A stretch of 64,000 nucleotides of DNA from an uncultured Mycoplasmatota bacterium. Its GTDB lineage: Bacteria > Bacillota_I > Bacilli_A > RF39 > UBA660. The stretch spans positions 3,700-67,699 of the forward strand of contig CAOJZZ010000002.1 of the NCBI GenBank assembly GCA_948466315.1, in the 5' to 3' direction. Below the pieces are notes generated by a model, which saw nothing but the letters and a program-made list of their open reading frames with translations, ran no database searches and was not told the DNA's origin. Positions 28,693 through 61,559 of the stretch are shown one piece after another. Each line of letters starts with the position of its first letter. Positions within the stretch are counted from its first letter, which is position 1. Position numbers and translations under genes: made by a program.

Positions 28693-29763
28693 ATGGTAGT
28701 AAGACGAAGAGCTAAACCATTACTGATTGTAATAATTATTTTAAGTATTTTAGTAGTGTTTGCTACAGGAATTGTTTGTACTTACTTATACTTTGTAGGT
28801 CCTGTTGATACTAGTAGTAAGGCAAATATTGAGGTTATTATACCTAGTGGTACTAGTACGAATACTATTGCTACGATACTTAAGAAAAAAAGATTAATAA
28901 AAAATGAATTCTTTTTTAAGATGTATATAAAATTAAATAATGTTAATTCTTTAAAAGCCTCTACTTATGTTATGAGGCAAAATATGTCATTAAAGGAAAT
29001 TATTGCAGTGTTAGAGAAGGGGAGCTCTCCTAATGTTAGAATTACATTTAAAGAGGGAGTTCGTCTTAGTGAGTATGCTAGAGAAATTGCTAAGAATACC
29101 AATTGTGATTATGAAGAGGTTATTGATACTTTAAAGAATAAAGACTATATCAATAAACTAATAGACAAGTATTGGTTTTTAACAGAAGATATTTTAGATG
29201 ATGATATTTATTATCCTTTAGAGGGGTATTTGGCTCCTGATACATATCATTTTGAGAGTATGAATGTTGAACTTGAGAAAATTATTGAGACTATGTTAGA
29301 TGAGACAGAGAAAAAATGGGAAAGATATCGAAATGTTCTTCAGAATAATATTCATCAATATATAACAATGGCTTCATTGGTAGAATTAGAGGGTACTAAT
29401 ACAGATAACCGTAAAACATTAGTGGGGATTTTTAATAATCGATTAGAGCGTAATATGAATTTAGGTAGTGATGTTACGACTTATTATGCTTTACAATATC
29501 CTATGGATAAAGATTTAACAACTGCTCAGTTTGCGACTGATAATCCTTATAATACAAGAGCAACTTCTATGAAGGGAAAAATGCCAATTGGACCAATATG
29601 TAATCCTTCAATTTCTAGTATAGAGGCCAGTGTTTATCCTACTAAAAGTAGTTATTTGTATTTTGTAGCTGATAAACATGGAAATATATATTATACACGT
29701 ACTTTGGCTGAACATAATGCTAAAGTATTAGAAATAAAAGAAAAAGGTGACTGGATATGGTAA
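28693..29763 (+). CDS. mltG: Endolytic murein transglycosylase MltG (YceG/YrrL)
   Basis: N-terminal TM, YceG-like domain (LEGYLAPDTY, ASLVELE, NPYNTR..G.PIGPICNP). Confidence 0.85.
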   Translation: MVVRRRAKPLLIVIIILSILVVFATGIVCTYLYFVGPVDTSSKANIEVIIPSGTSTNTIATILKKKRLIKNEFFFKMYIKLNNVNSLKASTYVMRQNMSLKEIIAVLEKGSSPNVRITFKEGVRLSEYAREIAKNTNCDYEEVIDTLKNKDYINKLIDKYWFLTEDILDDDIYYPLEGYLAPDTYHFESMNVELEKIIETMLDETEKKWERYRNVLQNNIHQYITMASLVELEGTNTDNRKTLVGIFNNRLERNMNLGSDVTTYYALQYPMDKDLTTAQFATDNPYNTRATSMKGKMPIGPICNPSISSIEASVYPTKSSYLYFVADKHGNIYYTRTLAEHNAKVLEIKEKGDWIW

Positions 29764-30362
29764 ATGACTATGGTGTAATTAAAGAGATAAAAGATTATGC
29801 AGATATTAATAATGTACCAATTATGACAAGTGAGGGAATTTCTTATATTACTAATTATATTGTTAAACATCAAGTAACAGAGATTTTAGAGATAGGAACA
29901 GCTATTGGTTATTCGGCTATTATGATGGCTTTATCTTCTAGTGATGTTCATATTACAAGTATTGAGCGAGATGAGAAAAGGTACTTAGAAGCTTTAAAAA
30001 ATATTAAAAAATTAGAATTGGAAGATAGAATAGAATTAATTTATAATGATGCTTTTGATGTTAATTTAGATGGTACTTTTGATTTAATATTAATAGATGC
30101 AGCAAAAGCACAAAATATTAAATTTTTTGAAAAATTTGAACGTAATTTAAAACAAACAGGTGTTATAATTACAGATAATTTGAATTTTCATGGTTTAGTA
30201 GATAAAGATGAAGAATCTATTAAAAGTAAGAATTTAAGAGCTTTAGTAAGAAAAGTAAAAGACTATATTACCTTTTTAAAAAATAATAAAGATTATGAAA
30301 CAGAATTTTTAGATATTGGAGATGGACTTTCTGTTAGCAAATTAAAGAAATCATTGGAGTGA
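29757..30362 (+). CDS. trmR: SAM-dependent O-methyltransferase, TrmR/YrrM-like (tRNA 5-hydroxyuridine methyltransferase)
   Basis: LEIGTAIGYSAI SAM-binding motif, DLILIDAAK, conserved position after mltG. Confidence 0.7.
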   Translation: MVNDYGVIKEIKDYADINNVPIMTSEGISYITNYIVKHQVTEILEIGTAIGYSAIMMALSSSDVHITSIERDEKRYLEALKNIKKLELEDRIELIYNDAFDVNLDGTFDLILIDAAKAQNIKFFEKFERNLKQTGVIITDNLNFHGLVDKDEESIKSKNLRALVRKVKDYITFLKNNKDYETEFLDIGDGLSVSKLKKSLE

Positions 30363-31126: not shown

Positions 31127-32194
31127 TTGAGTTATTTGCAGTTACTTAATTGTACAGGTAAGATGTCTACTTGTTGTAGTGATTATGGTTTAGCTAGAAT
31201 ATTATCTATTTTTAAAAGTGTGTTTTCTCTTATTCAGATGATTGCTCCTATTGTGCTTATAGTGATGCTTACTTTTCAACTTACAGCAATGGTTGTTAAT
31301 CCTGATGAGAAGAAGAATATGAAAAGGTTTATAAATAAATTTATGGCAGCTTTTGCTATATTTAGTTTGCCAACTACTGTTAATGTTATCTTAGGAATTG
31401 TACCTTCTAGTTATGAGCTTTTTTCTTGTTGGAAGTCAGCAGGTGAGGTTGATAATATCATTAAAGCTAATAAATCTATTTATATTAGGGCTAATAAAAG
31501 TAAAGCTAAAGATATTTTGAATGATCCTAGTAAGTATGAAAAAGGTAATCCTAAGAAGGATAAGGATAAAAATAAACCTAGTAAGAGTAAAGGTGATGGT
31601 TCTATTTTACTAATTGCTGGTCATTCTTATCCGCCATATTGTAGTACTGGTGGTAAGGCTGATTGTCGTGGAATGGCTGCTTCTGGATATGATGAAACTG
31701 ATCAGACTAGAATTTTGGTAAAACTTATTAAGAGTGAATTAGATAAATTGGGGGTTAAATCTGATATAGCTAATGCCTTAATGGCAGGGGATAACGATAA
31801 AATGAATAAGTCTTTTTATATTGAGTGTAGCTTAGGAACAGCTTTATGTAATAAATATGATTGGGGTAAATATAAGTTTGTTTTAGAGATTCATTTTAAT
31901 GCTTCTGGAGCTGGTACAGCCTCTGGTACGATGCTTGTTAAAAATACAGCTGGTTATAGTACACCAGCTGATCAAGATATAGTTGATGCAGTTGTTAAAA
32001 ATACTGGTCATAGAAGGTATGGCGATTATGTTACTGGGATTGCTAATATTAGTTATTTTCAAAATAAAAAAGTACCAATTACTTATTTAGAGACAGAATT
32101 TTATGATAATGGTAATGCGATGAAAACTTATACTAGTAAAAAAGAGATTATTGCTAAGGATATTGCTAAGGCTATAAAAAAACATTATGGATAA
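31127..32194 (+). CDS. Fusion protein: VirB2-like two-TM domain + N-acetylmuramoyl-L-alanine amidase (Amidase_3-like)
   Basis: AGGGAGG RBS 7 nt before the TTG at 31127. N-terminal SYLQLLNC..IAPIVLIVM..NPDEKK..AAFAIFSLPTTVNVILGIV..CWKSA. C-terminal LLIAGHS..YDETD..LEIHFNAS..YLETEF pattern of zinc amidases. Confidence 0.6.
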   Translation: MSYLQLLNCTGKMSTCCSDYGLARILSIFKSVFSLIQMIAPIVLIVMLTFQLTAMVVNPDEKKNMKRFINKFMAAFAIFSLPTTVNVILGIVPSSYELFSCWKSAGEVDNIIKANKSIYIRANKSKAKDILNDPSKYEKGNPKKDKDKNKPSKSKGDGSILLIAGHSYPPYCSTGGKADCRGMAASGYDETDQTRILVKLIKSELDKLGVKSDIANALMAGDNDKMNKSFYIECSLGTALCNKYDWGKYKFVLEIHFNASGAGTASGTMLVKNTAGYSTPADQDIVDAVVKNTGHRRYGDYVTGIANISYFQNKKVPITYLETEFYDNGNAMKTYTSKKEIIAKDIAKAIKKHYG

Positions 32195-32233
32195 AAGTAA
32201 TATCCTGTGATAGAATATGGTCAGGTGATTAAT

Positions 32234-33097
32234 GTGTCATATTTTCAAATACTTACTTGTAATAATACACTTGGTACTTGTTGTAGTGATTATGGTTTAG
32301 TAAATATTTTAAATATTATTCATACTGTTTTTGTTTTTATACAAATTATTGTACCTATTTTATTATTAGTTATGGTTGTTTTTCAATTTACTAATTTAGT
32401 TATTAATCCTGATATGAAAAATGGTTTAAAGAAGGTTACTAATAAATTTATAGCAGCAGTAATTATTTTCTTGTTACCAGTGTTTGTTGATGTATTATTG
32501 AATATTTTACCTGTTAGTAAGTCTTTTCAGGTTGCAACCTGTTGGAAGAGTGCTAAGTCTTCTGCGGAGGTTTTAAGATCTAAAAGGACTGTTTATATTG
32601 ATCCTAAAACTGGTAAAAAGAAAGTTAATGTTTTAATTAGTCCAGGGCAATATAAACCTGGTAAAGATAAAAAGGAAAGTAGTGGGAATAATAAAATAAC
32701 TGGTACAGCTAGGGGTAAGGCTATTGTTGATTATGCTAAAAGTTTTGTAGGAAAACCTTATATATATGGAGGTAGTTGGAATGGTGAGATTCCATATATG
32801 GGAACAGATTGCAGTGGTTTTGTACAAGGCGTATTTAAACATTTTGGAATAAATCTTACTAGGACTACAGATACACAATGGGCTGATACAGCTTCTTATA
32901 AATTAGTAAAACCACCTCAAAATATTCAAGCAGGAGACCTTGTTATGTATAATGGTCATGTAGCAATACTTACTGGTAACGGTAATGAAATTGTTCATGC
33001 TATGTCAAGTGATTCAGGTATTGTTGTTTCTTCCGATTATAGAACTAATTCTAATAAAGCTATACTTGGTATTATGAGAATTAATGGTGTTAATTAA
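32234..33097 (+). CDS. Fusion protein: VirB2-like two-TM domain + NlpC/P60 endopeptidase
   Basis: GTG at 32234 with AGGTGA RBS. N-terminal SYFQILTC..IVPILLLVM..NPDMK..AAVIIFLLPVFVDVLLNIL..CWKSA. C-terminal GKPYIYGG..GTDCSGFVQGVF..GDLVMYNGHVAIL (Cys-His NlpC/P60). Confidence 0.7.
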   Translation: MSYFQILTCNNTLGTCCSDYGLVNILNIIHTVFVFIQIIVPILLLVMVVFQFTNLVINPDMKNGLKKVTNKFIAAVIIFLLPVFVDVLLNILPVSKSFQVATCWKSAKSSAEVLRSKRTVYIDPKTGKKKVNVLISPGQYKPGKDKKESSGNNKITGTARGKAIVDYAKSFVGKPYIYGGSWNGEIPYMGTDCSGFVQGVFKHFGINLTRTTDTQWADTASYKLVKPPQNIQAGDLVMYNGHVAILTGNGNEIVHAMSSDSGIVVSSDYRTNSNKAILGIMRINGVN

Positions 33098-33109: not shown

Positions 33110-33835
33110 TTGAATATTGATATATTAAAGACTAAAAAAATAGTACTCTTTATAGTTGGTAGTTTACTTTTTATTATTCTTATTATAATTGTTGCTGTAA
33201 ATAAAAATAATACAAAAAATTATGGTAATTTAAAACAAGATAAGACTAAATATCTTGTATATACAAAGTATGAAGATAAAAGTAGTGTTTATCAAAAAGA
33301 AATTCCATATATTAATATGAAAGCAGATGTTATAAAAAAGGTTAATCACGATATCTATCTTTTTTGTGATGATTATAAAGATAAAGAAAAAAGTGTAATT
33401 AGTTATGAGTATGATATTAATGGAATTATTTTATCTGTTGTGTTAAAAATTGTTGATAATGAAACAGAGTATGCCCCAGAAGTTTATTTTAAAACTTATA
33501 ATATTAATTTAGATACTTCTGAGGTTATCTCAGATGATAGTTTACTTGGTTTATTTGAAGTTGATGAGACAACTGTATATAATAAAATAGATATAGGTTT
33601 TAGAAACTTTTATAAAGATGTAACAGATAAAGGATATGTTGATTCTTTAGAATGTGATTATAATTGTTTTTTAAGTTATCGAGGAATAGATAATTATTTA
33701 GATGATGTTTTCTATTATGTAGAAAATGGTAGTTTAGTTGTATTTAGATCATTTATTTTTTACTCAGTATTTGGAGAAGAAAAATATTTTTCAGATGATG
33801 ATTTTAAATTTGTAATAGCAAAGTTTAAAGATTAG
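33110..33835 (+). CDS. Membrane-anchored hypothetical protein, paralog A' of 30367-31110
   Basis: AAGGAGG RBS, TTG start, N-terminal TM, blockwise similarity to 30367-31110. Confidence 0.5.
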   Translation: MNIDILKTKKIVLFIVGSLLFIILIIIVAVNKNNTKNYGNLKQDKTKYLVYTKYEDKSSVYQKEIPYINMKADVIKKVNHDIYLFCDDYKDKEKSVISYEYDINGIILSVVLKIVDNETEYAPEVYFKTYNINLDTSEVISDDSLLGLFEVDETTVYNKIDIGFRNFYKDVTDKGYVDSLECDYNCFLSYRGIDNYLDDVFYYVENGSLVVFRSFIFYSVFGEEKYFSDDDFKFVIAKFKD

Positions 33836-33889: not shown

Positions 33890-34750
33890 ATGAAATTATT
33901 AATAGAAGTTAGTAATAAAAATAAATTATATGAAGATTGTATAGATGGAATTATTTTGCCATTAGAAGGGTTTGCTGTACAGGGTGGATGCTATTTTACG
34001 TATGAAGAGATTGAGGAAATCGTCTCTAAAAATAGTTCTCTTGATATATTTGTTTCTATTAATAAAAATATGTTTAATCAAGATATAGAGCCTTTAAAAG
34101 AGCTATTAATAAAATTAGATAAACTTAAATTAAAAGGTATATTCTTTTATGATCTTTCATTATTACAGCTAAAAAAAGAACTTAATTTAAATATTTCCTT
34201 TGTGTGGAATCAGACTTATATGGTTAATAATTATAAAACTTGTGATTATTATTTTTCTGAAGGAGTTAAATATGCTTTATTAAGTAGTGAGATAACTTTA
34301 GAAGAGATTAAAGAAATTATATTAAAATCTAGAATTACTCCAATGGTTTTTGTTTTAGGTTTCCCAATAGTTGCTTTTTCTAAGAGGAAGTTAATATCAA
34401 ATTATTATAAAGATTTGGGTAAAGAGTCTTTGGAAAAATTAGAGATTTTTGATGATTTATCAAAAGAGGGATATGAAATAGTAGAAAATAGTGATGGTAC
34501 TAATTTTTATTTAAAAAATATAGTTAATGGAACTTCTATTATTAAAGAATTATATAATTTAGATGTTTCTTATATAATTATGAAGGATTATGGTATTTCA
34601 ACTTTATTGTTTGAAGATTTACTAGTTGATACAAAGAAATATATTGAAGGGAATTGTCAAGATAGTAGTTATATTGATAAATATAAAAAGTTAGGAGATA
34701 ATACAGGTTTCTTTTTTAAAAAGACAATTTATCAGGTGAGGCAAAAATGA
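33890..34750 (+). CDS. trhP1: Peptidase U32-family protein (YrrN/TrhP1-like, tRNA ho5U synthesis)
   Basis: Position and size match yrrN directly upstream of and overlapping the yrrO-like gene. Called mainly on synteny; few clear motifs. Confidence 0.5.
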   Translation: MKLLIEVSNKNKLYEDCIDGIILPLEGFAVQGGCYFTYEEIEEIVSKNSSLDIFVSINKNMFNQDIEPLKELLIKLDKLKLKGIFFYDLSLLQLKKELNLNISFVWNQTYMVNNYKTCDYYFSEGVKYALLSSEITLEEIKEIILKSRITPMVFVLGFPIVAFSKRKLISNYYKDLGKESLEKLEIFDDLSKEGYEIVENSDGTNFYLKNIVNGTSIIKELYNLDVSYIIMKDYGISTLLFEDLLVDTKKYIEGNCQDSSYIDKYKKLGDNTGFFFKKTIYQVRQK

Positions 34751-35940
34751 AAAAAATTGAGTTATTATCACCAGCTGGTGATTTAGAACGATTAAAGGTT
34801 ACTCTTTTATATGGAGCAGATGCTGTTTATATTGGTGGAGAGAGATATAGTTTAAGAGCTAATGCGACTAATTTTTCATTGGAGGAGATAAAGGAAGGGT
34901 GTTTGTTTGCTCATAGGTTAGGTAAGAAGGTTTATTTAACTCTTAATATAGTCTTTCATAATGAAGATATGGCTGGAGTCGAAGAATATATAAAAGAGGT
35001 AGTAGATGCTTCTATAGATGCTTTTATTGTTAGTGATCCTTTTATTATTTCTTATATTAAAGATAACTTTCCTGGAGTTGAGGTTCATTTATCTACACAA
35101 AACTCTACTAGTAATTATAAGGCAGTTGAGTATTTTAAGAGTAAGGGTGTAGATAGGGTTGTATTAGCTAGAGAATTATCTCGTAATTCTATTTCTGAAA
35201 TAATTGATAAGACAGGAGTTGATGTTGAGGTTTTTATTCATGGAGCAATGTGTACTTGTTATAGTGGAAGATGTGCTTTATCAAATTATGTTACAAATAG
35301 AGATGCTAATAGAGGTGGATGTGCTCAGGTTTGTCGGTTTGCTTTTACTACTAAAGAAGAAAAAAAATTTACTATGGCTACTAAAGATTTAAATTTAGCT
35401 GAATTTATGAGGGATTTAATAGAAATAGGAGTTACTAGTGTAAAAGTGGAAGGTAGAATGCGTTCTTTATATTACTTAGCTACTGTTATTGGTAGTTACC
35501 GAGAATTAATAGATGAGATTTATGCTGATACTTTAACTGCTAGTAAGATGTCTGTTATAAAGGGGCGTTTAGATAGAGTAGCTAATAGAGTGGTTTCTTC
35601 ACAATATTTTGAAAAGGAAGCTTCAGAGGATGATCAATATTATACTGGTAGAAGTGAGGTAAGTAATCAAAATTATTTGGGACTTATTACAGGATATGAT
35701 CATATTAATTCTTGTCTTATCCTGGTAGAAAGGAATTATTTTGAGGTGGGAGATGAAGTAGAAGTATTTACACCTGATGGGGAAGTATTTCAATATACAA
35801 TAGGGAAGTTTTATGATGATAAAATGAATGAGCTTATGGTTGCTAGACATCCAGAGCAAGTATTATTAATTCCGTTTTTTAAGGAGGTGCCTCAGTATTC
35901 TATGATGAGACTAATAAGGAAAGTGAAAAAGTATGAGTAA
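34747..35940 (+). CDS. trhP2: Peptidase U32-family protein (YrrO/TrhP2-like)
   Basis: ELLSPAG..GADAVYIGGERYSLRANATNF, EVHLSTQ, LARELS, Cys cluster CTCYSGRCALSNY..GGCAQVCR typical of U32 proteins. Confidence 0.7.
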   Translation: MKKIELLSPAGDLERLKVTLLYGADAVYIGGERYSLRANATNFSLEEIKEGCLFAHRLGKKVYLTLNIVFHNEDMAGVEEYIKEVVDASIDAFIVSDPFIISYIKDNFPGVEVHLSTQNSTSNYKAVEYFKSKGVDRVVLARELSRNSISEIIDKTGVDVEVFIHGAMCTCYSGRCALSNYVTNRDANRGGCAQVCRFAFTTKEEKKFTMATKDLNLAEFMRDLIEIGVTSVKVEGRMRSLYYLATVIGSYRELIDEIYADTLTASKMSVIKGRLDRVANRVVSSQYFEKEASEDDQYYTGRSEVSNQNYLGLITGYDHINSCLILVERNYFEVGDEVEVFTPDGEVFQYTIGKFYDDKMNELMVARHPEQVLLIPFFKEVPQYSMMRLIRKVKKYE

Positions 35941-50713: not shown

Positions 50714-50875
50714 ATGAAGGCAGCTACAGGTGAATTAAATTTAACTGTTATTACTATAATTGCAATAGCAGCAATAATTGGGTTTTTCTGGATGATGTGG
50801 CCAAAAATTCAAGTGTCTATTAATACTCAATGGGAAAATATTTCTGGTACATCAATGATAGTAATTGAAAGATAA
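50714..50875 (+). CDS. Flp-like small pilin (53 aa); absent from the supplied ORF track
   Basis: ATG at 50714 preceded by AAAGGATGTGGAGA; TAA at 50873. MKAATGELNLTVITIIAIAAIIGFFWMMWPKIQVSINTQWENISGTSMIVIER: short leader, Gly, hydrophobic helix, short tail. Sits between the TadC-like and pseudopilin-like genes. Confidence 0.6.
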   Translation: MKAATGELNLTVITIIAIAAIIGFFWMMWPKIQVSINTQWENISGTSMIVIER

Positions 50876-52481: not shown

Positions 52482-52814
52482 ATGTCAAATTTGTTTCAAA
52501 TTGCTGTTGGTACTGATGCTTGTGGAGGATTATTAGCAATAGTAAAGATTATACGTAAGGGAATTATGCCAATAGTACAAATTTTTATTCCTATACTTTT
52601 GATTGTATTTGGAACTGTTGATCTTGGTAAGGCCGTTATTTCAAGTGATGAAAAAGAAGTAAAGCAAGCTCAGTCTAGATTGATTAAGCGTTGCATTTAT
52701 GCAGTTGCGATATTTTTGGTGGTTACCTTAGTAACAGTTATTATGAATATTGTAGCAGTTGGTGTTAGTGATGGTACTGGTTCTTGGTCTGAGTGTTGGA
52801 GTGCTGCTGCATAG
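52482..52814 (+). CDS. VirB2/TrbC-like two-TM pilin-like T4SS protein (110 aa)
   Basis: Two hydrophobic helices flank a conserved loop (..IPILLIVFGTVDLGKAVISSDEKEVKQAQSRLIKR..AVAIFLVVTLVTVIMNIV..CWSAAA). First gene of the T4SS block. Confidence 0.5.
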   Translation: MSNLFQIAVGTDACGGLLAIVKIIRKGIMPIVQIFIPILLIVFGTVDLGKAVISSDEKEVKQAQSRLIKRCIYAVAIFLVVTLVTVIMNIVAVGVSDGTGSWSECWSAAA

Positions 52815-52910: not shown

Positions 52911-53474
52911 ATGAAAAAGATGATTATATTTATTATATTTTTCTTTGTTTTACTGTTACCTATAAATATAAAAGCTATGGAAAAAAAACAGATTATATCT
53001 TCTTCTGTAAGTATTGGTGTTGTTAATGTTAGTAAGGCTTCTTTTAAAGATGTTAATAAGTTTACAAATGTTTCTACTAAAGTAAAAGATATGAAAAAAA
53101 AGAAAAAGAAGAATGAAGAGACTAATGATATTACTAAAGAGGATATGGAAGAATGGTTAAATGATTATGATAAAAAGAATATAAAGTGTAATACTATTCT
53201 TGGTAATCCTAAGGATAAAGATTCAGTAGCTTGGCTTTTACAGCAAATTTTAAACTATTTAAAAGTTATTGGTCCAATGGTGGTTATTGTGATGAGTGGA
53301 ATGGATTTTTCTAAAGCTATTGTTCAGAGTGATGACGAAATTATGCAAAAGGCACAGAAAAAATTGATTTTGCGATTAGTACTTACTGTAGCTTTGTTTT
53401 TTGTACCAACATTGGTAACAGTTCTTTTAGGGATATTTGGATTAACTGATGATCCGACTTGTAGTTTAAAGTAA
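52911..53474 (+). CDS. Second VirB2/TrbC-like protein with signal peptide and lysine-rich linker (187 aa)
   Basis: Signal peptide MKKMIIFIIFFFVLLLPINIKA. C-terminal 85 aa are homologous to 52482-52814 (GPMVVIVMSGMDFSKAIVQSDDEIMQKAQKKLILR..ALFFVPTLVTVLLGIFG). Confidence 0.5.
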   Translation: MKKMIIFIIFFFVLLLPINIKAMEKKQIISSSVSIGVVNVSKASFKDVNKFTNVSTKVKDMKKKKKKNEETNDITKEDMEEWLNDYDKKNIKCNTILGNPKDKDSVAWLLQQILNYLKVIGPMVVIVMSGMDFSKAIVQSDDEIMQKAQKKLILRLVLTVALFFVPTLVTVLLGIFGLTDDPTCSLK

Positions 53475-53496: not shown

Positions 53497-55557
53497 GTGA
53501 CAGATAATACAGCTGCTAATGCGATACATGATTTGCTTAGAAGTGCCCCAGCTTGGTTTATTGATAGACCAGCTTATTGGTTACTTGGAATTATGTATGA
53601 GATTTTTTTTAATGTTTCTACTGCTGAATTGTTTGTTAATTCAACAGTTAAGAATTTCTATTCTAGAGTACAATTAATTATTGGCGTTTTTATGGTATTT
53701 AAATTGGCTATAACAATTTTACAAGGAATTGTTAATCCTGATACTTTTACTGATAAAAAAAGTGGTGCTGGTACTATTATTACTAGAATAATTTTTTCTT
53801 TAGTTATGTTGACTTTATTAGTTCCTATTAATATTCCAAATGCAAAAAACGAGTATGAAATTCAACTTAATAACAATGGATTATTGTTTGGTACTTTATA
53901 TTCTTTGCAAAATAGGTTGTTACAAAACAATACTTTAGGTAGACTTATTTTAGGGACTACTGATGATGCTACGTCTTCTGATGATGATACATTGAGTGCT
54001 ACTGATAAGCAAAATGAGAAGTTGAAACAGTCTGCTGATGTATTTGCTTCAACAATTTTAAAAGGGTTTTTTAGAATAAATTTGAAACCTGTAGAAGAGC
54101 GGGATTCTGATGATGAGACTAAGAACGAAAATCGTATGTGTGAGGATATGGATGATGATACTTTAGCGATTTATAAAAAATTGGATGCTGATCCTGGTGA
54201 GTTATTGGGACTAGTTAATGCTAGTTGTGAAATGTCTGATTCTAGTTGGTTTGGTGAATATCTTTACAATAAAGTTGTAGGAACTTATAAAAGAATTAAA
54301 GGAGAAGACAGGTATGTTTTTGCTTATATGCCAGTTGTTGGTGGTGTTGTGGCTTTAGTTTTTGCTGTTATATTATTAGGTTTTACTGTTGATATCGCTA
54401 TTAGAGCAATAAAACTAGCTGTATTAAGATTGATTGCTCCTATACCAATTATCAGTTATATTCAACCAAGTAAGTCTAAAGATGGTGGTCCGTTTGAAAA
54501 TTATGTTAGAATATTAACTTCTACATATTTAGATTTGTTTGTCCGTTTAGCAGTTGTTTATTTTGTAATCTTTTTGATTCAAGATATGATTGTTAATGGT
54601 GTTGTTATCAATAATGGTAGTGGTGTAATTGGTCTCATTTCAATGATTTTTATCTTTTTAGGTTTATTCTTCTTCGCAAAACAAGCACCAAAGTTTATTA
54701 GGGATGTTTTAGGTTTGAAAAATCAACTTAGCAATATTGGTATTTCAGCTATGCTTGCTGGTGTTGGTGCTATTAGACAAGGTGGTACTCTTGCTGAGGC
54801 AGGAGAGGCCATGGTTGAAGATACTAGAGTTCGTACAGATGCTTACAATCAAGGAAAAGCTGCTCCTCCTGTTATGCAGTCTTATAATATGGGACGAGAT
54901 CATATGGCTAGACTTCTTACTGGTAACGATAGAATGACTGGAAGACAAATGGATTGGGGAACTAGACATTTGGATAGAATGAATATTAATGCAGATAATA
55001 TGGCTACTCTTAAAGGACAAATGTATCATGAACAAGATTTGGCATCTTTAGCGCAAAATATGGCTCAACGTGCTAGTCAAAATGGTTGGGGTGCTTTAAC
55101 ATCTAATGAGCAACATGCTATTGAGCAAGTATATAGAAACAAGAAACATATTGGTGCTGGTACTGCTCTTACGGCAGATCAAATTGATGAGATGCATGCA
55201 CAAGGAGCTACTATGTATGCAAATGAGGCTAATACTACCTTTAATAAAACTAAATCAACATATGATAAAATGTCTAAGATGCAGGATAGATATGGTCAAT
55301 CTAGGATTTATGAAGCTGAATATGAAGGTTATGTAGATAAAAATAATCCTAACCGTGACTTTACTCATAGAGCTTTCCGTGGATTAGGGCGTGATTCTAG
55401 ATTTAGTGGTGCTCAAAAATGGCGTACTCAAGCAGGGAATGATCGTGATGAAGGACGTAGGCCTACTCCTACAATAGCTCCTGTTCCGCCACCTCCACCA
55501 CCACCAAATGGACCTGGTTCAGGTGGTCCAGGTAGTGGTCCAGGATCTAATCCATAG
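53497..55557 (+). CDS. VirB6/TrbL-like polytopic channel protein with long C-terminal soluble domain and Pro/Gly tail
   Basis: Six or more TM segments across residues 20-410, then ~270 soluble residues ending APVPPPPPPPNGPGSGGPGSGPGSNP. Lies next to the VirB3- and VirB4-like genes. Confidence 0.5.
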   Translation: MTDNTAANAIHDLLRSAPAWFIDRPAYWLLGIMYEIFFNVSTAELFVNSTVKNFYSRVQLIIGVFMVFKLAITILQGIVNPDTFTDKKSGAGTIITRIIFSLVMLTLLVPINIPNAKNEYEIQLNNNGLLFGTLYSLQNRLLQNNTLGRLILGTTDDATSSDDDTLSATDKQNEKLKQSADVFASTILKGFFRINLKPVEERDSDDETKNENRMCEDMDDDTLAIYKKLDADPGELLGLVNASCEMSDSSWFGEYLYNKVVGTYKRIKGEDRYVFAYMPVVGGVVALVFAVILLGFTVDIAIRAIKLAVLRLIAPIPIISYIQPSKSKDGGPFENYVRILTSTYLDLFVRLAVVYFVIFLIQDMIVNGVVINNGSGVIGLISMIFIFLGLFFFAKQAPKFIRDVLGLKNQLSNIGISAMLAGVGAIRQGGTLAEAGEAMVEDTRVRTDAYNQGKAAPPVMQSYNMGRDHMARLLTGNDRMTGRQMDWGTRHLDRMNINADNMATLKGQMYHEQDLASLAQNMAQRASQNGWGALTSNEQHAIEQVYRNKKHIGAGTALTADQIDEMHAQGATMYANEANTTFNKTKSTYDKMSKMQDRYGQSRIYEAEYEGYVDKNNPNRDFTHRAFRGLGRDSRFSGAQKWRTQAGNDRDEGRRPTPTIAPVPPPPPPPNGPGSGGPGSGPGSNP

Positions 55558-55589
55558 TATTTTGAAAATAAAAAGGAGTGTGATATATA

Positions 55590-55901
55590 GTGAATTATTT
55601 AATTCCAGCTAATACAAAAAGGGGACAATTAATATTAGGAATATTTCGTCCTTTTGATTTGATATTGTTTGGTGTTGGTGTACTTATTACTGTTGTTTTT
55701 CTGGCTATTATGCCTTTAACCTCTACATTTGTAACTATTCTTATTTTAAGTCCTGCTCTTATTTCTGGATTTTTAGTAATGCCAATTCCTTATTATCATA
55801 ATATGTTGAATGTTATTATTGAAATGTATGAGTTTTTTACATCAAGACAAACTTATCGATGGAGAGGATGGTGTTATAAAAATGGCCAAGAAAAGAAGTA
55901 G
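55590..55901 (+). CDS. PrgI/VirB3-like small membrane protein
   Basis: 103 aa, IPANTKRGQLILGIFRPFDLILFGVGVL.. with two TMs. Immediately upstream of and overlapping the VirB4 gene, as in the Tn916 orf17-orf16 arrangement. Confidence 0.55.
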   Translation: MNYLIPANTKRGQLILGIFRPFDLILFGVGVLITVVFLAIMPLTSTFVTILILSPALISGFLVMPIPYYHNMLNVIIEMYEFFTSRQTYRWRGWCYKNGQEKK

Positions 55902-56433
55902 TGCTTTTACTGAGGATTGGTTACCAGTAAGAGGTATTCAAAGTAATATGATTATTACTACTGATAATTTTAAAATTACTGGAGTTAAAATAGCACCACG
56001 TAATATCTTTATTTTAGATCCAGAATCACAAAACTCGGTTTTAATTAGTCTTAAAAATTTTTATAATATGATTGATTTTGAGTTTTGGTTAGTGGTTGCT
56101 GATAGGCCAGTTGATATTTCGGTATATATGTCTCAGTTGCAACTTCTATATAATGAGACACAAACTCCTGTAATTAGGAAGTTGATTAGTCAGGATATTG
56201 AAAAAGGTAAAAGATTTATTAATAATAATATAGTTGATACAGAATATTTCTTTTTATTTAAAGATAAGGATCCAGATGTTTTACAAAAAAGGGTGAGAAT
56301 GATGATTAATGGTTTGGCTACTTGTGGGCTTAATGCTTCACAAGTAAGTAATGAGGACTTAAGAGTAATTTTAGATAATTTCTTGAATGGTGGTTCTACT
56401 ACTGAGTTTGGAATGGTGATGTCTTTTGAGTAA
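55882..56433 (+). CDS. VirB4-like protein, N-terminal domain encoded as a separate ORF (183 aa)
   Basis: GGAGAGG RBS before the ATG at 55882. FTEDWLPVRGIQSNMIITTDNFKITGVKIAPRNIFILD resembles the N-terminus of Firmicute VirB4 homologs. Ends 8 nt after the start of the next ORF. Confidence 0.55.
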   Translation: MAKKRSSAFTEDWLPVRGIQSNMIITTDNFKITGVKIAPRNIFILDPESQNSVLISLKNFYNMIDFEFWLVVADRPVDISVYMSQLQLLYNETQTPVIRKLISQDIEKGKRFINNNIVDTEYFFLFKDKDPDVLQKRVRMMINGLATCGLNASQVSNEDLRVILDNFLNGGSTTEFGMVMSFE

Positions 56434-58216
56434 TAGTATAAGAAGTGAATTAGCTCCTAAAGGACTTTCTTTTTCAACAAGTGATTTTTTCATTAGTGAT
56501 AAATATGCTACTATTTTGACTGTTGTTTCTTATCCTAAATATATTCTTCCTGGTTATTTATCAACACTTACTAATATGCCTGGAATTAAAGTAGTTGTAA
56601 AACATATACCTGTTCCTTTTCAAGATATGTCTAAAATGTTAAATAGACAAATTGCTGATTTGAAAGAACGTTATAGGAATGAAAGAGATCAAACTTCTAG
56701 AGAAAGATATCGACAGGATGCAGAGAGTTTAGAGTATTTTGTTTCAATGATTGCGGGTAGTCAAGCTAGAATATTTGATTTTCAAATGCATATTATGATT
56801 ACTTCTGATACTAAAGAGGATTTAGAATTGAAGAAAGTAAATGTTAAAAATTATTTAGATGCGATGGAGCTTAAAGGAATTTCTCTTAGATTTGAACAAG
56901 AGAAAGTATTAAAATCAATTTTACCAATTTTTCCTTCTCAAGATATTGAACAAAGAGTAGGAACTCCAATTCCATCTGTAACTATTGCTGCTATGTATCC
57001 ATTTATTTTTGATAGTATTAAAGATCCAGGATTATCGACACTTTTAGGAATTGATTTTTCTGGAGGAGTTATATTATTTAATCAGTTTTTATATAAAATT
57101 AGAAAAGAAAATAATAGAAATAATGCTAACATGATTATTCTTGGTACTTCTGGTTCTGGTAAATCTACTGCGGCTAAGTTGATGCTTAGAACTCATATTA
57201 GGAATGGTTGTCAACTTGTTATTATAGATCCTGAGGATGAGTTTAGAGAAATTACTTATACTTATGGTGGAGATACTGTTGATATTGGTAAAGGTGGAGA
57301 GTTTGGTTTAATTAATCCATTAGAAGTTGTTATTGATGCAGATGAAGAGGAAATTAAACAAGGATTAGGGTATACTGTACTTACTAGAACTTTACAATTT
57401 TTAAAAGCTTTTATGAAGTATTATGATCCATCAATTGAAGAAGATGTTTTAACTATGTTTAGTGAAATTGTTCAAGATACTTATAAACGTTTTGGTATTG
57501 ATTTTAATACTGATTTTTCTACTTATACTTCAGCTGATTATCCAACATTTAGTGATGTTTACGCAACAATTCGTGGTAGATTAATGTCTATTACAGAACA
57601 GACTAAAGAACGAGATATTATGGAGAGATTGGAATTAAAAGTAAGACCAATTACTAAAGAGTTGAAATTTTATTTTGATGGTCATACTACTATTCGTAGA
57701 GATAGTGATTTTATGGTATTTAATATTAAAGAATTAATGAATAGTGATTCTAATGTTCGTAATGCTTTATTTTTCAATGTTTTGAAATATGCTTGGGGTC
57801 TTTGTTTAGATTATAATGTAGATACTATAATGATGGTTGATGAGGCACATGTATTATTAGGAGAAAATAATGTTTTAGGTGCTGATTTCTTAGCTCAGGT
57901 ACAAAGACGTGCTAGAAAATATAATACTGGTACTATAATCATTACTCAACAACCAAGTGATTTTTCATCTCCTGCTGTTATAACACAAGGAAAAGCTATA
58001 TTTGATAATGCTTCTTATTATTTAGTGATGGGACTTAAGAAGCAAGCTGTTGAAGATTTATCTTTATTAATAGATTTGAATGATAGTGAGAAAGAAAGTA
58101 TTAAGAGATATTCACAAGGAGAAGCGTTATTTGTTTGCGGAAATAGACGAATGCGTATAAATGTTGCAGTTACTAAGGAAGAGTTAGATTCCTTTGGTAG
58201 TGGTGGAGGATTATAA
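56426..58216 (+). CDS. VirB4-like T4SS ATPase, central and C-terminal part (596 aa)
   Basis: Walker A ILGTSGSGKST, Walker B IMMVDEAH, IIITQQPSD. TTG start in the +1 frame relative to the previous ORF. Confidence 0.8.
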   Translation: MSNSIRSELAPKGLSFSTSDFFISDKYATILTVVSYPKYILPGYLSTLTNMPGIKVVVKHIPVPFQDMSKMLNRQIADLKERYRNERDQTSRERYRQDAESLEYFVSMIAGSQARIFDFQMHIMITSDTKEDLELKKVNVKNYLDAMELKGISLRFEQEKVLKSILPIFPSQDIEQRVGTPIPSVTIAAMYPFIFDSIKDPGLSTLLGIDFSGGVILFNQFLYKIRKENNRNNANMIILGTSGSGKSTAAKLMLRTHIRNGCQLVIIDPEDEFREITYTYGGDTVDIGKGGEFGLINPLEVVIDADEEEIKQGLGYTVLTRTLQFLKAFMKYYDPSIEEDVLTMFSEIVQDTYKRFGIDFNTDFSTYTSADYPTFSDVYATIRGRLMSITEQTKERDIMERLELKVRPITKELKFYFDGHTTIRRDSDFMVFNIKELMNSDSNVRNALFFNVLKYAWGLCLDYNVDTIMMVDEAHVLLGENNVLGADFLAQVQRRARKYNTGTIIITQQPSDFSSPAVITQGKAIFDNASYYLVMGLKKQAVEDLSLLIDLNDSEKESIKRYSQGEALFVCGNRRMRINVAVTKEELDSFGSGGGL

Positions 58217-58233
58217 GATAAAAAAGAAGTAGG

Positions 58234-60711
58234 GTGATGTGGATGCCATATGAGAGTAATCGACGTAATAATAAAAGTAATTCGTCAGGTAATTTAGGTA
58301 ATCAGACTAATAATGGTGACTTATTTTCTCAAGGTGGAAAATCTAGTTCCACTAATCCTTATTCATCAATTAAGGGTAATCCATTAAATCAAAAAAATTC
58401 TTCTAATACTGATTCTGCTTCAGCTCCTACAGATAAAAAACAACAAGAAAAAGAAGCTACTAAAAATGCTGCTAAGACAGCTGCTAAGGGGGCTGCAACT
58501 TATGTTGCTGGTGGTGCTGGTGGAAAGGCTGTAGATGTTTTAGCTAATACAAAAGCAGGACAACAAGTACTTAATAATGGTGCTGAGTTATTGAATAAGA
58601 TACCAGGTGTTGGTAAAACAGCTAAAAAGTTAGATGATTCTGGTACTATAAAAAAGGCTGATAAAGCTCTTGATATTGCTGGTGGTGGTAAAGTTAATCA
58701 ACCTATGCCTTCTGGTAATAATAAAATGTCTGGTGATAGTAAAGGAGCTACTGGTTCTCCTAGTGAAAGCGGTGGAGGAGGTTCGTTTGGGCCAAAGCCT
58801 CCATTTGGACCTAAATCACCTTTTGGTAAAAGCAAAGATAGAGATTCCGAAGATGGTCAAGCAGATTCAGATTATAATGGAATGGGATTTGGTCACATAC
58901 CAGTTGGTGTAAAAATTGCAATAGCAGCAATAATTAGTATGGGAGGATTACTTTTTTTATTAGTTATATTGTTTTTTAATATGACTAGTAATATTAAGGA
59001 TTTTGATGATGCACTAGGAGCTAGTATTGCAGCTGGTGATGAGACTGGAAATATTGATTATGAGGCTACTAGTAAAGAAGCCCAAAAATTTTATGATAGA
59101 GTTAATGATGTTAAACTTAGTTTTCAAGCTAAAGGAAAAACTGTTGATTATTTAAAAATTGTTGCAGTATATCATATTTTAAATGAAAATGATTCTAGTA
59201 TTACATATGATGATATGACTACTTCTGCTATTGAAGAGATAGCTGATAGTATGTTTGACAATAATAGTTATTCAGAAGATGTTTTTAGAGAAAATTTAAT
59301 AAATGATATTTTTCCTAAATATTTATCAGATATGACAGATACAGGGTATGAAAAATTAGCCGATGATGTTTTTGATTATATTGATAGATATAATACTTTT
59401 ATTGGTAAGGAATCATCTTCTACTACTTGTGCGTCACTTGGTAGTTGTGTTTATGATATTAAAGGATTTTCTTTTGATGGTAGAAATGTTTCTAAAGCTA
59501 TGAATATTAAAGATTTAAAAGTTAGGTTAATGCAGTGTGGTCCTCCATATGGTCCTGGAAATTATTCAACACCAATTGATGGTGAAGATTTAGTGAATTT
59601 TGAAGATTATATTGCGGGAGTTGCTTATGGCGAAATTGGACCAGATGCTCCTCTTGAAGCTATGAAGGCTCAAATGATAGCAGCAAGAAGTTATGCGCTT
59701 GCTAGGCCTACAGCTATGGGAAATGCTCTGGGTAAAAAACTGGAAGAGGAAAATGGGCAATGGATTTTACAAATATCATCTTGTGTTGCTGATCAGGTTT
59801 TCTGTAATATTGATAAAGGTTGTTCACATTCTGGTGGTGGTCAACAAGGTGGTTATCTTAAAAGTGGTGTTAATTTTCCTGGGCTTTCAGTTTATAAAGG
59901 TCCTTTGCCAGAGGAGCACAATATTCGTGTTGCAGCTGCTGAAACACAGGGAGAGGTTTTACTTAATAGTCAAGGCTATGTTATACAAACTGGTTTTTTA
60001 GCTACTGAGTCTAATATGTTTACTAGTATGGCTAATAGTGGTCTTAATTATAAACAAATTTTATTGCAGGTTTATAATCAAGGGTCTAGGGCATATGGTG
60101 CTGATAGTATTTCTGAGTCGAATTGTAATGATGGTAATAATTCTGGTTGTAGTAGTAGTGATGATGATTCTAGTGGAGGTACTGGTAATGTAGTAAAGGC
60201 TAGAGGCGCATATGCTAATTGGAAACAGTTTGGTGCTCCTTGGTCTAATGTTATGGTTGGTGCAAGTGGGCAAAATATTGGTGCTATAGGTTGTTTGGCC
60301 ACATCAGTTGCTATATTAATTGCTAAAAGTAGAGAGAATACAGTGATTAAGGATTTTAATCCTGGAACCTTTGTTTCATATTTAAATAGTCATGGTGGTT
60401 TTATTGGTGGTGGATTATTTGTTTGGTCTTCAGCTACAACTGTTGCTCCAACATTCCATTATCAAGGTCAAGTTAGTGTGGCAGGTTTAAATCAAGCTGA
60501 TAAATTAAATAAAATAAAAAGTTTGGTAAATCAGGGATATTATGTTACTGCTGAGGTAAAAGGTTCAACAGGACAGCACTGGGTAGCAATAGATTCCGTA
60601 TCAGGTAATAATATTATTATGATGGATCCAGGTAGTAATTCAACTAATATGTGGAGTCAGTACAATTGGCAAAATACTAGTACTTTAGGATATTATAAAG
60701 TAAGTAAATAG
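58234..60711 (+). CDS. T4SS-associated cell-wall hydrolase: disordered N-terminal region - TM - SpoIID/LytB-like domain - papain-like (C39-like/CHAP-like) cysteine peptidase
   Basis: SpoIID signature FEDYIAGVAYGEIGPDAPLEAMKAQMIAARSYALARP..AAETQGEVLL. C-terminal W..PW..G..IGAIGCLATSVAIL...GQHWVAIDS (Cys/His). TM IAIAAIISMGGLLFLLVILFF. Start may be the ATG at 58243. Confidence 0.65.
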   Translation: MMWMPYESNRRNNKSNSSGNLGNQTNNGDLFSQGGKSSSTNPYSSIKGNPLNQKNSSNTDSASAPTDKKQQEKEATKNAAKTAAKGAATYVAGGAGGKAVDVLANTKAGQQVLNNGAELLNKIPGVGKTAKKLDDSGTIKKADKALDIAGGGKVNQPMPSGNNKMSGDSKGATGSPSESGGGGSFGPKPPFGPKSPFGKSKDRDSEDGQADSDYNGMGFGHIPVGVKIAIAAIISMGGLLFLLVILFFNMTSNIKDFDDALGASIAAGDETGNIDYEATSKEAQKFYDRVNDVKLSFQAKGKTVDYLKIVAVYHILNENDSSITYDDMTTSAIEEIADSMFDNNSYSEDVFRENLINDIFPKYLSDMTDTGYEKLADDVFDYIDRYNTFIGKESSSTTCASLGSCVYDIKGFSFDGRNVSKAMNIKDLKVRLMQCGPPYGPGNYSTPIDGEDLVNFEDYIAGVAYGEIGPDAPLEAMKAQMIAARSYALARPTAMGNALGKKLEEENGQWILQISSCVADQVFCNIDKGCSHSGGGQQGGYLKSGVNFPGLSVYKGPLPEEHNIRVAAAETQGEVLLNSQGYVIQTGFLATESNMFTSMANSGLNYKQILLQVYNQGSRAYGADSISESNCNDGNNSGCSSSDDDSSGGTGNVVKARGAYANWKQFGAPWSNVMVGASGQNIGAIGCLATSVAILIAKSRENTVIKDFNPGTFVSYLNSHGGFIGGGLFVWSSATTVAPTFHYQGQVSVAGLNQADKLNKIKSLVNQGYYVTAEVKGSTGQHWVAIDSVSGNNIIMMDPGSNSTNMWSQYNWQNTSTLGYYKVSK

Positions 60712-60726
60712 GGGTGAAATCGAAAT

Positions 60727-61503
60727 ATGAAGAAAAAAAGATATATTGTATTATTAATTATTTTAGCTATTTATGTTATTGCAATGTATTTTTTTCTAGG
60801 GGCTAATCATTTAAAAAAAGAGAAGGATTATACCACTATTTTAGTAGGAGATTCAACTATTTGGAATTATTCTAATAAAAAATGGTTGAATGTTACTAGT
60901 AAATCTACAATAAAAGATATTAATTGGAAAGAGTTTACTGTTTATATAGATAATAAAAAATTAGGTAATTATTATTTATGGCATGATGATAAGTGGTATT
61001 TGTTTGATAAGGATAAAAATGCAGTTAACTCATCAGGTAATTTATTTGCTTATCGTTCAAATTTTCCTTTAAAAGTAAAAGAGTTTAGTACTGAGCCAAT
61101 AGTTAATATGGATGTTGTTAGTCAAGTATTAGAGGAAAATAAATTAGATGTTTCTTCTAAATTTACTGTTAATACACTTACTAAATTTGATATAGATAAT
61201 GATAATATCTTGGAGGAATTTTATATAATCAGTAATGTTTTTGCAATAGATTTTGTTCCAGATACTTTATTTTCTATTGTTTTTATGGTAAAAGGGAATC
61301 AGATTTATTATATTTATAGAGATATTGCCCCTAATAAGACGACTAATGGGTGTAAGCCATATTTTAATAGTTTTTTCGATGTTGATTTAGATAATAAATA
61401 TGAGTTTATTTTGAGTTGTGGTCGTTATAGTGTTAAGCAACCTGTTGATATGTTATATAAATTTGAAAAAGATGAATTTAAAATTTTAATTTCCAATCAA
61501 TAA
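60727..61503 (+). CDS. Membrane-anchored hypothetical protein (occupies the position of VirB8/TcpC-like components)
   Basis: N-terminal TM plus ~225-aa ectodomain. The role is inferred from position only. Confidence 0.3.
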   Translation: MKKKRYIVLLIILAIYVIAMYFFLGANHLKKEKDYTTILVGDSTIWNYSNKKWLNVTSKSTIKDINWKEFTVYIDNKKLGNYYLWHDDKWYLFDKDKNAVNSSGNLFAYRSNFPLKVKEFSTEPIVNMDVVSQVLEENKLDVSSKFTVNTLTKFDIDNDNILEEFYIISNVFAIDFVPDTLFSIVFMVKGNQIYYIYRDIAPNKTTNGCKPYFNSFFDVDLDNKYEFILSCGRYSVKQPVDMLYKFEKDEFKILISNQ

Positions 61504-61559
61504 TTAATGACAGTTTTAAAAAGTTAAGTTATAATATAGGGAAGAAGGGAAGTAGGCAT

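Follow-up and report, generated by a model that had tools for sequence, protein, structure and literature searches.

Two peptidoglycan hydrolases in a housekeeping operon of an uncultured gut bacterium begin with a domain that recurs, 20 kb away, as small proteins beside a type IV secretion system (T4SS). Is this domain a secretion pilin turned to another use, and do the two enzymes serve the secretion system or the cell wall at large? The locus lies in a stretch of 64,000 nucleotides (nt), called the window throughout (assembly GCA_948466315.1, contig CAOJZZ010000002.1, positions 3,700 to 67,699 of the forward strand), from a Mycoplasmatota bacterium with a G+C content of 27.8%, whose lineage consists of uncultured gut Bacilli with small genomes. 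A preliminary description of the window had proposed that a VirB2-like module possibly docks the enzymes onto the T4SS or the adjoining Tad system. The relationship to VirB2-like pilins proved sound, and we consider it fairly likely that the hairpin has been co-opted as an uncleaved export and anchor module for housekeeping wall enzymes, probably clamped by a disulfide and assisted by an adjacent partner protein, here called X.

A pilin-like hairpin on wall enzymes

The two fusion genes, their domains and the small pilin-like proteins are as follows.

31127..32194, plus strand: pilin-module/Amidase_3 fusion protein of 355 amino acids (aa); start codon TTG, 7 nt after an AGGGAGG ribosome-binding site
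31127..31441, plus strand: VirB2-like (PF18895-type) two-helix hairpin of the amidase, aa 1-105 (Pfam, BLASTP, AlphaFold2, hhalign and shuffles)
31469..31579, plus strand: Lys-rich disordered linker of the amidase, about aa 115-151 (predicted local distance difference test score, pLDDT, <50)
31604..32182, plus strand: N-acetylmuramoyl-L-alanine amidase (Amidase_3) catalytic domain (Pfam, Foldseek and invariant residues)
32234..33097, plus strand: pilin-module/NlpC-P60 fusion protein of 287 aa; start codon GTG after AGGTGA
32234..32554, plus strand: VirB2-like hairpin of the NlpC/P60 protein, aa 1-107 (PF18895, 20.7 bits, E 4e-4)
52482..52814, plus strand: stand-alone pilin-like protein of 110 aa in the T4SS cluster
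52911..53474, plus strand: second pilin-like protein (pilin2) of 187 aa, with a signal peptide, a variable spacer and a C-terminal module at aa ~104-187 (nt 53220-53471)

The preliminary description had aligned the ~105 N-terminal residues of both enzymes with the proteins at 52482 and 52911, leaving the significance of the alignment to formal scoring, and the alignment is significant by BLASTP, block shuffles and hhalign alike. In composition-corrected BLASTP, the amidase N-domain matched the 52482 protein at E 2e-11 and the 52911 protein at E 2e-8, the NlpC/P60 N-domain matched them at E 7e-10 and E 1e-6, respectively, the two small proteins matched each other at E 3e-13, and the N-regions of the two enzymes matched each other at E 1e-44. 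Since transmembrane (TM) composition can inflate BLASTP scores, a control that preserves hydrophobicity was run, in which the target was permuted within 8-residue blocks with its hydrophobicity profile kept (n = 1000). Smith-Waterman scores lay at z 6.5-8.4 above these shuffles, with 0/1000 shuffles scoring as high, and the VirB3-like two-TM protein starting at 55590, used as an unrelated control from the T4SS locus, was not significant in the same test. Comparison by hhalign of a profile of 17 hydrolase-type N-domains with a profile of 31 small pilin homologues gave a probability of 99.4% (E 1.9e-21) and brought the CW motif of both into register. The identities first quoted were recomputed as exactly 12/28 and 12/27, and, as stated, three copies have the CW(K/S)SA-type motif, whereas 52911 keeps the Cys and lacks the Trp.

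A hidden Markov model (HMM) of the hydrolase N-domain, searched against the open reading frames (ORFs) of the window, recovered both small proteins (E 5e-20 for 52482, E 1e-13 for 52911), and there are four copies of the module in the window and no others. All four match PF18895 (T4SS_pilin), at 16.2, 20.7, 15.0 and 18.5 bits, below the gathering threshold of 26.6. Among relatives, PF18895 is matched at E<=1e-3 by 45 of 92 fusion representatives (best 3e-9), and precomputed PF18895 annotation is present on at least 17 amidase orthologues, many of them listed as PF18895+PF01520. At the level of sequence, the hydrolase N-domains are diverged homologues of the PF18895 VirB2-like pilin hairpin, and this homology is secure.

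The start sites first proposed, 31127 and 32234, agree with the ribosome-binding motifs, and the products of 355 and 287 aa are also those of the public gene calls. Both catalytic domains score above their gathering thresholds, the amidase with PF01520 (Amidase_3; 47.4 bits against a cut-off of 27) and the NlpC/P60 protein with PF00877 (59.9 bits against 23). The Zn-binding and catalytic residues of the amidase (H166, E190, H256, E322 and E324) did not vary in 44/44 orthologues, nor did the Cys-His-His triad of the NlpC/P60 protein (C193, H242 and H255) in 17/17, so that, as aligned, the catalytic residues of both enzymes are intact. In the AlphaFold2 model of the amidase (mean pLDDT 77.5) the catalytic domain spans residues 160-355, and Foldseek matched the model to structures of CwlD, CwlV and LytH at E 5e-9 to 1e-7. 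About 60 orthologous clusters contain the amidase fused to the N-domain.

In the amidase, the module is made up of an N-tail with C9, C16 and C17, a helix at 20-57 containing P41, a basic loop (NPDEKKNMKR), a second helix at 62-91 containing P82, and C101 followed by Trp. The AlphaFold2 model places the same two helices on either side of a four-residue turn, kinks the second at P82, and adds a helix at 98-123 that carries the CW motif and runs into the low-confidence linker (pLDDT <50 for 115-151) between module and enzyme. Four positions are invariant in the 17 hydrolase-type domains and the 92 fusion representatives: a Cys in the N-tail, a Pro in either helix and a Cys directly after helix 2. 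In 112/120 small pilin homologues, each tail holds a single Cys. Lys and Arg are concentrated in the loop, at a density per residue of 0.285 across 89 fusion proteins compared with 0.035 in the N-tail and 0.075 past helix 2, and the same charge asymmetry was seen in the small pilins. By the positive-inside rule, a loop of this kind would be cytoplasmic and both tails would lie outside, which places the enzyme outside as well. The predicted helices and the charge pattern thus fit a PF18895-type hairpin, that is, two TM helices around a short basic cytoplasmic loop. The conserved N-tail Cys and the Cys after helix 2, predicted to lie on the same extracytoplasmic side, probably form a disulfide that ties the ends of the hairpin together.

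The same module is found on a wide range of enzymes. An HMMER search of the full library with the hydrolase-type N-domain profile, in which representatives are 50% identity clusters, returned 8650 representative proteins at E<=1e-3 and 2272 at E<=1e-10. Among the best 150 representatives, 92 are at least 200 aa long, and in nearly all of these the domain lies at the extreme N-terminus. The Pfam domains of the 92 are NLPC_P60 (45), Peptidase_C39_2 (10), CHAP (7), Peptidase_C70 (5) and Amidase_5 (3), followed by M23 (2), S11 DD-carboxypeptidase (2), YkuD L,D-transpeptidase (1), an anthrax-lethal-factor-like protease (1) and a few alpha/beta hydrolases. This range of C-terminal partners indicates that the module is a general N-terminal carrier, mainly for peptidoglycan-active enzymes, and, together with the PF18895 annotations, it substantiates the earlier suggestion that a VirB2-like module is reused as the N-terminal membrane domain of such enzymes.

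Further arrangements were seen at related loci (numbered with the prefix L). Two loci hold tandem paralogues that combine the module with C-terminal domains matching no Pfam family, of ~300 aa in L050 (4886-7375) and ~200 aa in L017 (3955-5898), and no X gene adjoins the tandem proteins of L050. Locus L048 (2653-5274; JGI 3300006217, a sample that also holds the 110-aa pilin of the window) encodes a third pilin-module enzyme, a C39_2/C70 peptidase with its own X gene, whose N-domain is 50% identical to that of the amidase. It adjoins rplU-prp-rpmA-obg, and the protein after it is again of C39_2/C70 type and has a Big_2 domain; the locus probably comes from the same organism as the window or a very close one. 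As to origin, a phage source (a signal-arrest-release endolysin or a holin-like protein) was set aside when two conserved peptide patterns found no relative in IMG/VR, and a plasmid source when tblastn of the module and the 110-aa pilin found no match in PLSDB. A match to the NCBIfam model 'pLS20_p028' (E 3e-5, 23 bits against a cut-off of 150) is too weak, and the pLS20 paper showed no link.

Operon context and the partner protein X

Around the fusion genes, the window contains the following features.

28693..30362, plus strand: MltG/YceG and a YrrM-like O-methyltransferase, upstream housekeeping genes; syntenic in L019-L040
30367..31110, plus strand: X1, partner of the amidase, with an N-terminal TM helix, a ~200-aa alpha/beta ectodomain and an invariant CxxxC; no Pfam family
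33110..33835, plus strand: X2, partner of the NlpC/P60 fusion and paralogue of X1, the copy conserved across the lineage
33890..35940, plus strand: two U32 peptidases (YrrN/YrrO-like), downstream housekeeping genes; syntenic in relatives

The gene order is IreB-RuvX-DUF1292-MltG-O-methyltransferase-[X1-amidase-NlpC/P60-X2]-U32-U32-HD-GreA, with intergenic gaps of 4-54 nt and no terminator-like site found on the plus strand between 27.5 and 38 kb of the window. The order of IreB, RuvX, DUF1292, MltG, O-methyltransferase, the two U32 peptidases and, further on, GreA is that of ireB-ruvX-yrzB-mltG-yrrM-yrrN-yrrO...greA in B. subtilis, which we take to be a Bacilli-wide gene string; unlike B. subtilis, the lineage of the window has X and pilin-module hydrolase genes (four genes in the window) between the methyltransferase and the first U32 gene. 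Synteny was scanned with one genome per GTDB species, giving 22 loci, by narrow patterns that are biased toward close relatives. All 22 come from uncultured gut metagenome-assembled genomes labelled Bacilli, Mollicutes, Tenericutes or Erysipelotrichaceae (one Muribaculaceae). In about 19 of the 22 species loci, a gene for an NlpC/P60 protein with the pilin module sits, together with a neighbouring X gene, after the methyltransferase and ahead of the first U32 gene, indicating that the pair is vertically inherited, and across related loci the identity of the NlpC catalytic domain (52-72%) moves in step with that of MltG (51-61%). The amidase and X1 are an additional pair at this position, seen only in the species of the window and in L019.

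Neighbourhoods of related loci were covered to ±10 kb around each match. Within that distance, no homologue of VirB4, VirB6 or VirD4 was found near the fusions at the mltG locus, and no T4SS gene near the amidase, C39/C70 or unknown-domain fusions at other places. A database search with the module had been suggested in the preliminary description as a way to see what the domain is fused to and whether it follows T4SS loci; the fused C-terminal domains are mostly wall-active, and none of the fusion loci examined has a T4SS gene within 10 kb.

What accompanies the module is X. The two copies in the window are 30% identical (E 2e-30), and an X HMM matched genes adjoining the amidase fusions (L015 and L017), the C39/C70 fusion (L048) and the NlpC fusions at E 1e-61 to 1e-112. 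The X family is unchanged whether the enzyme is an amidase, an NlpC/P60 or a C39/C70 protein, so that X tracks the pilin module and not the catalytic type, which argues for a partner directed at the module, such as a chaperone or regulator, and against an immunity protein specific to each toxin. X appears to be an undescribed family strictly tied to pilin-module enzymes: profile searches of Pfam, NCBIfam and PDB sequences gave no match, and an HMM search found no X homologue in the T4SS cluster of the window. Assignments of X to DUF4163/DUF3298 (RsiV/PdaC-like) or to VirB8-like NTF2 proteins were tried and dropped, with nothing in Pfam or NCBIfam, noise in the PDB and an NTF2-like similarity at E 0.2, and a relationship to the T4SS-cluster protein at 60727 was rejected at an hhalign probability of 3%. 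The account given in the preliminary description had overlooked both X and the conserved cysteine pair.

The secretion cluster and competing readings

The T4SS genes beside the pilin genes, given for comparison, are as follows.

53497..63863, plus strand: T4SS core, comparison only
from 53497, plus strand: VirB6/TrbL-like protein
from 55590, plus strand: VirB3-like two-TM protein
55810-56433 and 56426-58216, plus strand: split VirB4
58234-60711, plus strand: SpoIID-type hydrolase with Peptidase_C39_2 and a single TM helix, the cluster's own
from 60727, plus strand: unknown protein of the T4SS core
from 61560, plus strand: VirD4

The full order of the cluster is sortase/adhesin, DUF5411, CpaB, CpaF, TadB, TadC, Flp-like protein, two unknown proteins, pilin, pilin2, VirB6, VirB3, split VirB4, hydrolase, unknown protein and VirD4. 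This sortase/adhesin, Tad and T4SS cluster (window 42242-63863; L041, L044 and L046) is syntenic in at least four species, one of them represented by a 1.42-Mb circular contig, and neither a relaxase nor an integrase was seen in the parts of the cluster that were covered. The cluster has the appearance of a T4SS that resides on the chromosome of monoderm Bacilli, is conserved in the lineage and includes VirB2-like pilins. The PF18895-type copies at 52482 and 52911 adjoin VirB6, VirB3 and VirB4, whereas the two hydrolase copies do not, lying 20 kb off in the mltG operon with the U32, HD, GreA, sortase/adhesin and Tad genes in between. The fusions are therefore not encoded inside the T4SS cluster, as a VirB1-type enzyme would be, and the hydrolase at 58234 is. 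The single-TM hydrolase of the cluster is swapped at the same position among relatives, being SpoIID+C39_2 in the window and L041 and Glucosaminidase+CHAP in L044 (15152-17371).

Several other features of the cluster were recorded. The length of pilin2 varies from 127 aa in L044 (10001-10384) through 187 aa in the window to 408 aa in L041 (10417-11643), where a Cys-rich N-terminal domain of ~300 aa replaces the spacer, which suggests, from these sequences, that pilin2 displays a variable surface domain. The VirB4 halves overlap, with a TraC-like N-part of about 183-207 aa and an ATPase part of 596 aa; the split is also called in L001-L006, L041 and L044, so it is conserved and not a sequencing frameshift. 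The first hairpin of the VirB6/TrbL-like protein (window 53647-53820, aa 51-108; '...IVNPDTFTDKKSG...IIFSLVMLTLLVP') matched the pilin HMM weakly, at E 0.003 among 241 ORFs, as did that of the VirB6-like protein of L046 (E 0.005); the match may reflect a remote pilin-like hairpin within VirB6, or chance. All related contigs (L001-L006) have a gene called for a 53-aa ORF that lies, in the window, at about 50714-50875 between TadC and a 163-aa protein; this ORF, shorter than the length cut-off applied to the window, is likely an Flp-type pilin of the Tad system.

Given the module, its partner and its setting, we propose the following course of events for the fusion enzymes. On insertion of helix 1, the short N-tail with its Cys would end up outside, the loop rich in Lys and Arg would be kept in the cytoplasm, and helix 2, oriented N-in/C-out like a signal peptide, would carry the catalytic domain across the membrane. 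The enzyme would then work at the outer face of the membrane on a flexible, Lys-rich tether of ~40 residues, with a disulfide between the N-tail Cys and the Cys after helix 2 clamping the outside ends, an analogue without a covalent ring of the head-to-tail cyclisation of VirB2/TrbC. Each fusion enzyme would act with its adjacent cognate one-TM X; since it is the pilin module and not the catalytic domain that X accompanies, X probably binds the module or governs its action, and by analogy it may resemble the membrane partners of other wall hydrolases (ActH with LytH, GerS with CwlD and EnvC with AmiA/B). Vertical inheritance of the NlpC/P60 and X pair in the mltG operon argues that the primary role is housekeeping wall remodelling near the membrane and not T4SS assembly. 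The topology, the disulfide, the regulatory part of X and the housekeeping role are put forward here as what these patterns would imply.

Several points weigh against this co-option of the hairpin for housekeeping enzymes. Across 17 NlpC/P60-fusion orthologues the module is 45-50% identical, compared with 58% for the catalytic domain, 23% for the linker and 25% for the TM anchor of X; a module whose conservation is close to that of the catalytic domain and double that of the X anchor does more than anchor. In two further species, as in the window, the mltG-operon fusion is followed about 24 kb downstream, on one and the same contig, by a T4SS pilin, and a view of ±10 kb is too narrow, as it would miss the T4SS of the window too. 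With a T4SS that is chromosomal and lineage-conserved, simple co-occurrence is unable to separate the hypotheses. The predicted topology and disulfide draw solely on the positive-inside rule and on conservation, and AlphaFold2 confidence is low for the N-tail (residues 1-15). Foldseek found no significant fold for X (the best being NTF2-like at E 0.2, probability <=0.35), and any role given to X is a guess.

The alternative that survives best, though we hold it to be unlikely, is that the module docks the enzymes onto the T4SS, packing the amidase and the endopeptidase onto the small pilins or the VirB6-like channel so that cutting is focused at the T4SS/Tad machine, or placing them on a pilus-like fibre. 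Such docking would account for a module homologous to pilin genes in the same genome, for conservation beyond the needs of an anchor, and for a Cys pair and two prolines held in common with the free pilins. The chromosomal, syntenic T4SS/Tad cluster lies about 24 kb from the operon wherever checked, the pilin2 module in that cluster already bears a large extracellular domain (187-aa protein in the window, 408 aa in L041), and the module weakly resembles the first hairpin of the VirB6-like protein. However, no fusion lies inside or beside T4SS genes at the loci examined (±10 kb), the fusions sit in a Bacilli-wide housekeeping gene string, and the T4SS is equipped with a hydrolase of its own. 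The conserved partner of the fusions is X, which has no homologue in the T4SS cluster, and the domains fused to the module include a DD-carboxypeptidase, an L,D-transpeptidase and unknown non-hydrolase domains, while to our knowledge the known T4SS-associated wall enzymes are hydrolases. The three-enzyme wall-remodelling set tied to the T4SS/Tad machine, as first envisaged, is for these reasons not upheld: its two fusions belong to a syntenic insert in the mltG operon with no T4SS within 10 kb, the cluster has the 58234 hydrolase, and the module is also fused to DD-carboxypeptidase and L,D-transpeptidase domains.

A related possibility, to which we attach a still lower probability, is that the module co-assembles with the free T4SS pilins, so that wall enzymes at its C-terminus and adhesin-like domains at its N-terminus (as in pilin2) would be displayed along a VirB2-type fibre or at the collar of the channel, and X would be devoted to the module as its chaperone or inhibitor.

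It is very unlikely that the fusions are polymorphic effectors, in which the module would be a trafficking domain handing variable wall-degrading toxins to the T4SS for use against neighbours and X would be the immunity protein. One conserved N-domain does precede many C-terminal peptidases and hydrolases, including the anthrax-lethal-factor-like protease, each enzyme has its own adjacent X paralogue, and the lineage has a conserved chromosomal T4SS. Immunity proteins normally follow the toxin type, however, and toxin cassettes turn over fast, whereas a single X family serves amidase, NlpC/P60 and C39/C70 enzymes and the NlpC/P60 and X pair is syntenic (about 19/22 species) and diverges in step with MltG across the lineage. 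The two-TM hairpin, moreover, predicts an enzyme retained in the membrane and not released, and no relatives were found on plasmids (PLSDB) or viral contigs (IMG/VR).

Finally, a chance similarity, with the shared region a generic hydrophobic signal-anchor aligned through its TM composition, would suit the sub-threshold PF18895 scores (15-20.7 against 26.6 bits) and a PDB sequence profile search with the module that returned no solved pilin and only compositional matches to TM segments of G-protein-coupled receptors, but it is effectively ruled out by hhalign (99.4%, E 2e-21) and by the hydrophobicity-keeping shuffles (z 6.5-8.4, with the two-TM control not significant), the copies sharing non-hydrophobic landmarks (Cys, Pro, the NPD/SSDEK loop and CW) and orthologues reaching Pfam's own PF18895 listing.

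Relation to known systems and significance

Set against known systems, the module is closest to the PF18895 pilins, with which it shares a two-helix hairpin of ~100 residues and a short basic loop; the small copies of the window also lie directly upstream of VirB6, VirB3 and VirB4, with more than one paralogue per locus. Unlike those pilins, the fusions carry the module at the N-terminus of enzymes of 280-550 aa away from the T4SS, in gut Bacilli and not in Patescibacteria, a signal peptide is absent from the hydrolase copies and from the 110-aa copy, and the scores in the window fall below the gathering threshold. In the literature found, PF18895 appears only in work on Patescibacteria T4SSs (PMC12102498, PMC12857230; a structure-universe preprint), and reviews describe monoderm T4SSs as being without VirB2 homologues (PMC4027160, PMC8557374), Patescibacteria being the exception (PMC12102498, PMC12857230). 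A literature search, which was not exhaustive, found no paper on fusions of the pilin module to hydrolases or on X, and the combination of PF18895 with an enzyme is already visible in precomputed Pfam annotations.

The VirB2/TrbC/TraA pilins of diderm bacteria are likewise helix-loop-helix membrane hairpins with their ends outside and a basic cytoplasmic loop, an arrangement that is predicted here. The ends of VirB2/TrbC are joined by cyclisation, and the candidate Cys-Cys bridge of the window module would likewise hold the ends of the hairpin together. In contrast to these pilins, the module has no sequence match to solved pilins and no leader peptide, and head-to-tail cyclisation would be incompatible with the fusions, in which the enzyme extends the C-terminus.

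The VirB1-type hydrolases of monoderm systems (PrgK, TraG-pIP501, CwlT, TcpG and Orf14) resemble the fusions as membrane-anchored NlpC/P60/CHAP- or amidase-type enzymes in a T4SS-bearing genome. The known ones are encoded in the T4SS operon and anchored by a single TM helix (PMC4027160), whereas the fusions lie in the mltG operon and have a pilin hairpin, and it is the 58234 protein that fills the VirB1-type role. A further parallel is with partner-dependent amidases (LytH-ActH, CwlD-GerS and AmiA/B-EnvC), as the Amidase_3 fold matches LytH and CwlD and there is a gene for a dedicated membrane or extracytoplasmic partner. X differs from those partners in being unrelated in sequence, with no significant fold match, and in pairing also with NlpC/P60 and C39/C70 enzymes, and an activator role for X is hypothetical.

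These results show that the gut Bacilli lineage, too, has a conserved chromosomal T4SS with genes of VirB2 type, an arrangement known until now from descriptions of Patescibacteria only, and that the same hairpin has been recruited with a dedicated partner as the standard N-terminal module of the wall enzymes of the lineage, in the mltG housekeeping operon. They also define two unannotated families, the fusion module and X, that current annotation pipelines leave blank, and they lead to the prediction that a disulfide may substitute for pilin cyclisation. If the enzymes dock on the T4SS, wall remodelling would be physically linked to a monoderm pilus, and if they co-assemble with the pilins, a monoderm T4SS pilus would bear its own enzymatic cargo. 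If the housekeeping role that we favour is true, the hairpin would represent a new route by which autolysins are exported, tethered and probably regulated, with part of a secretion system co-opted for growth of the wall.

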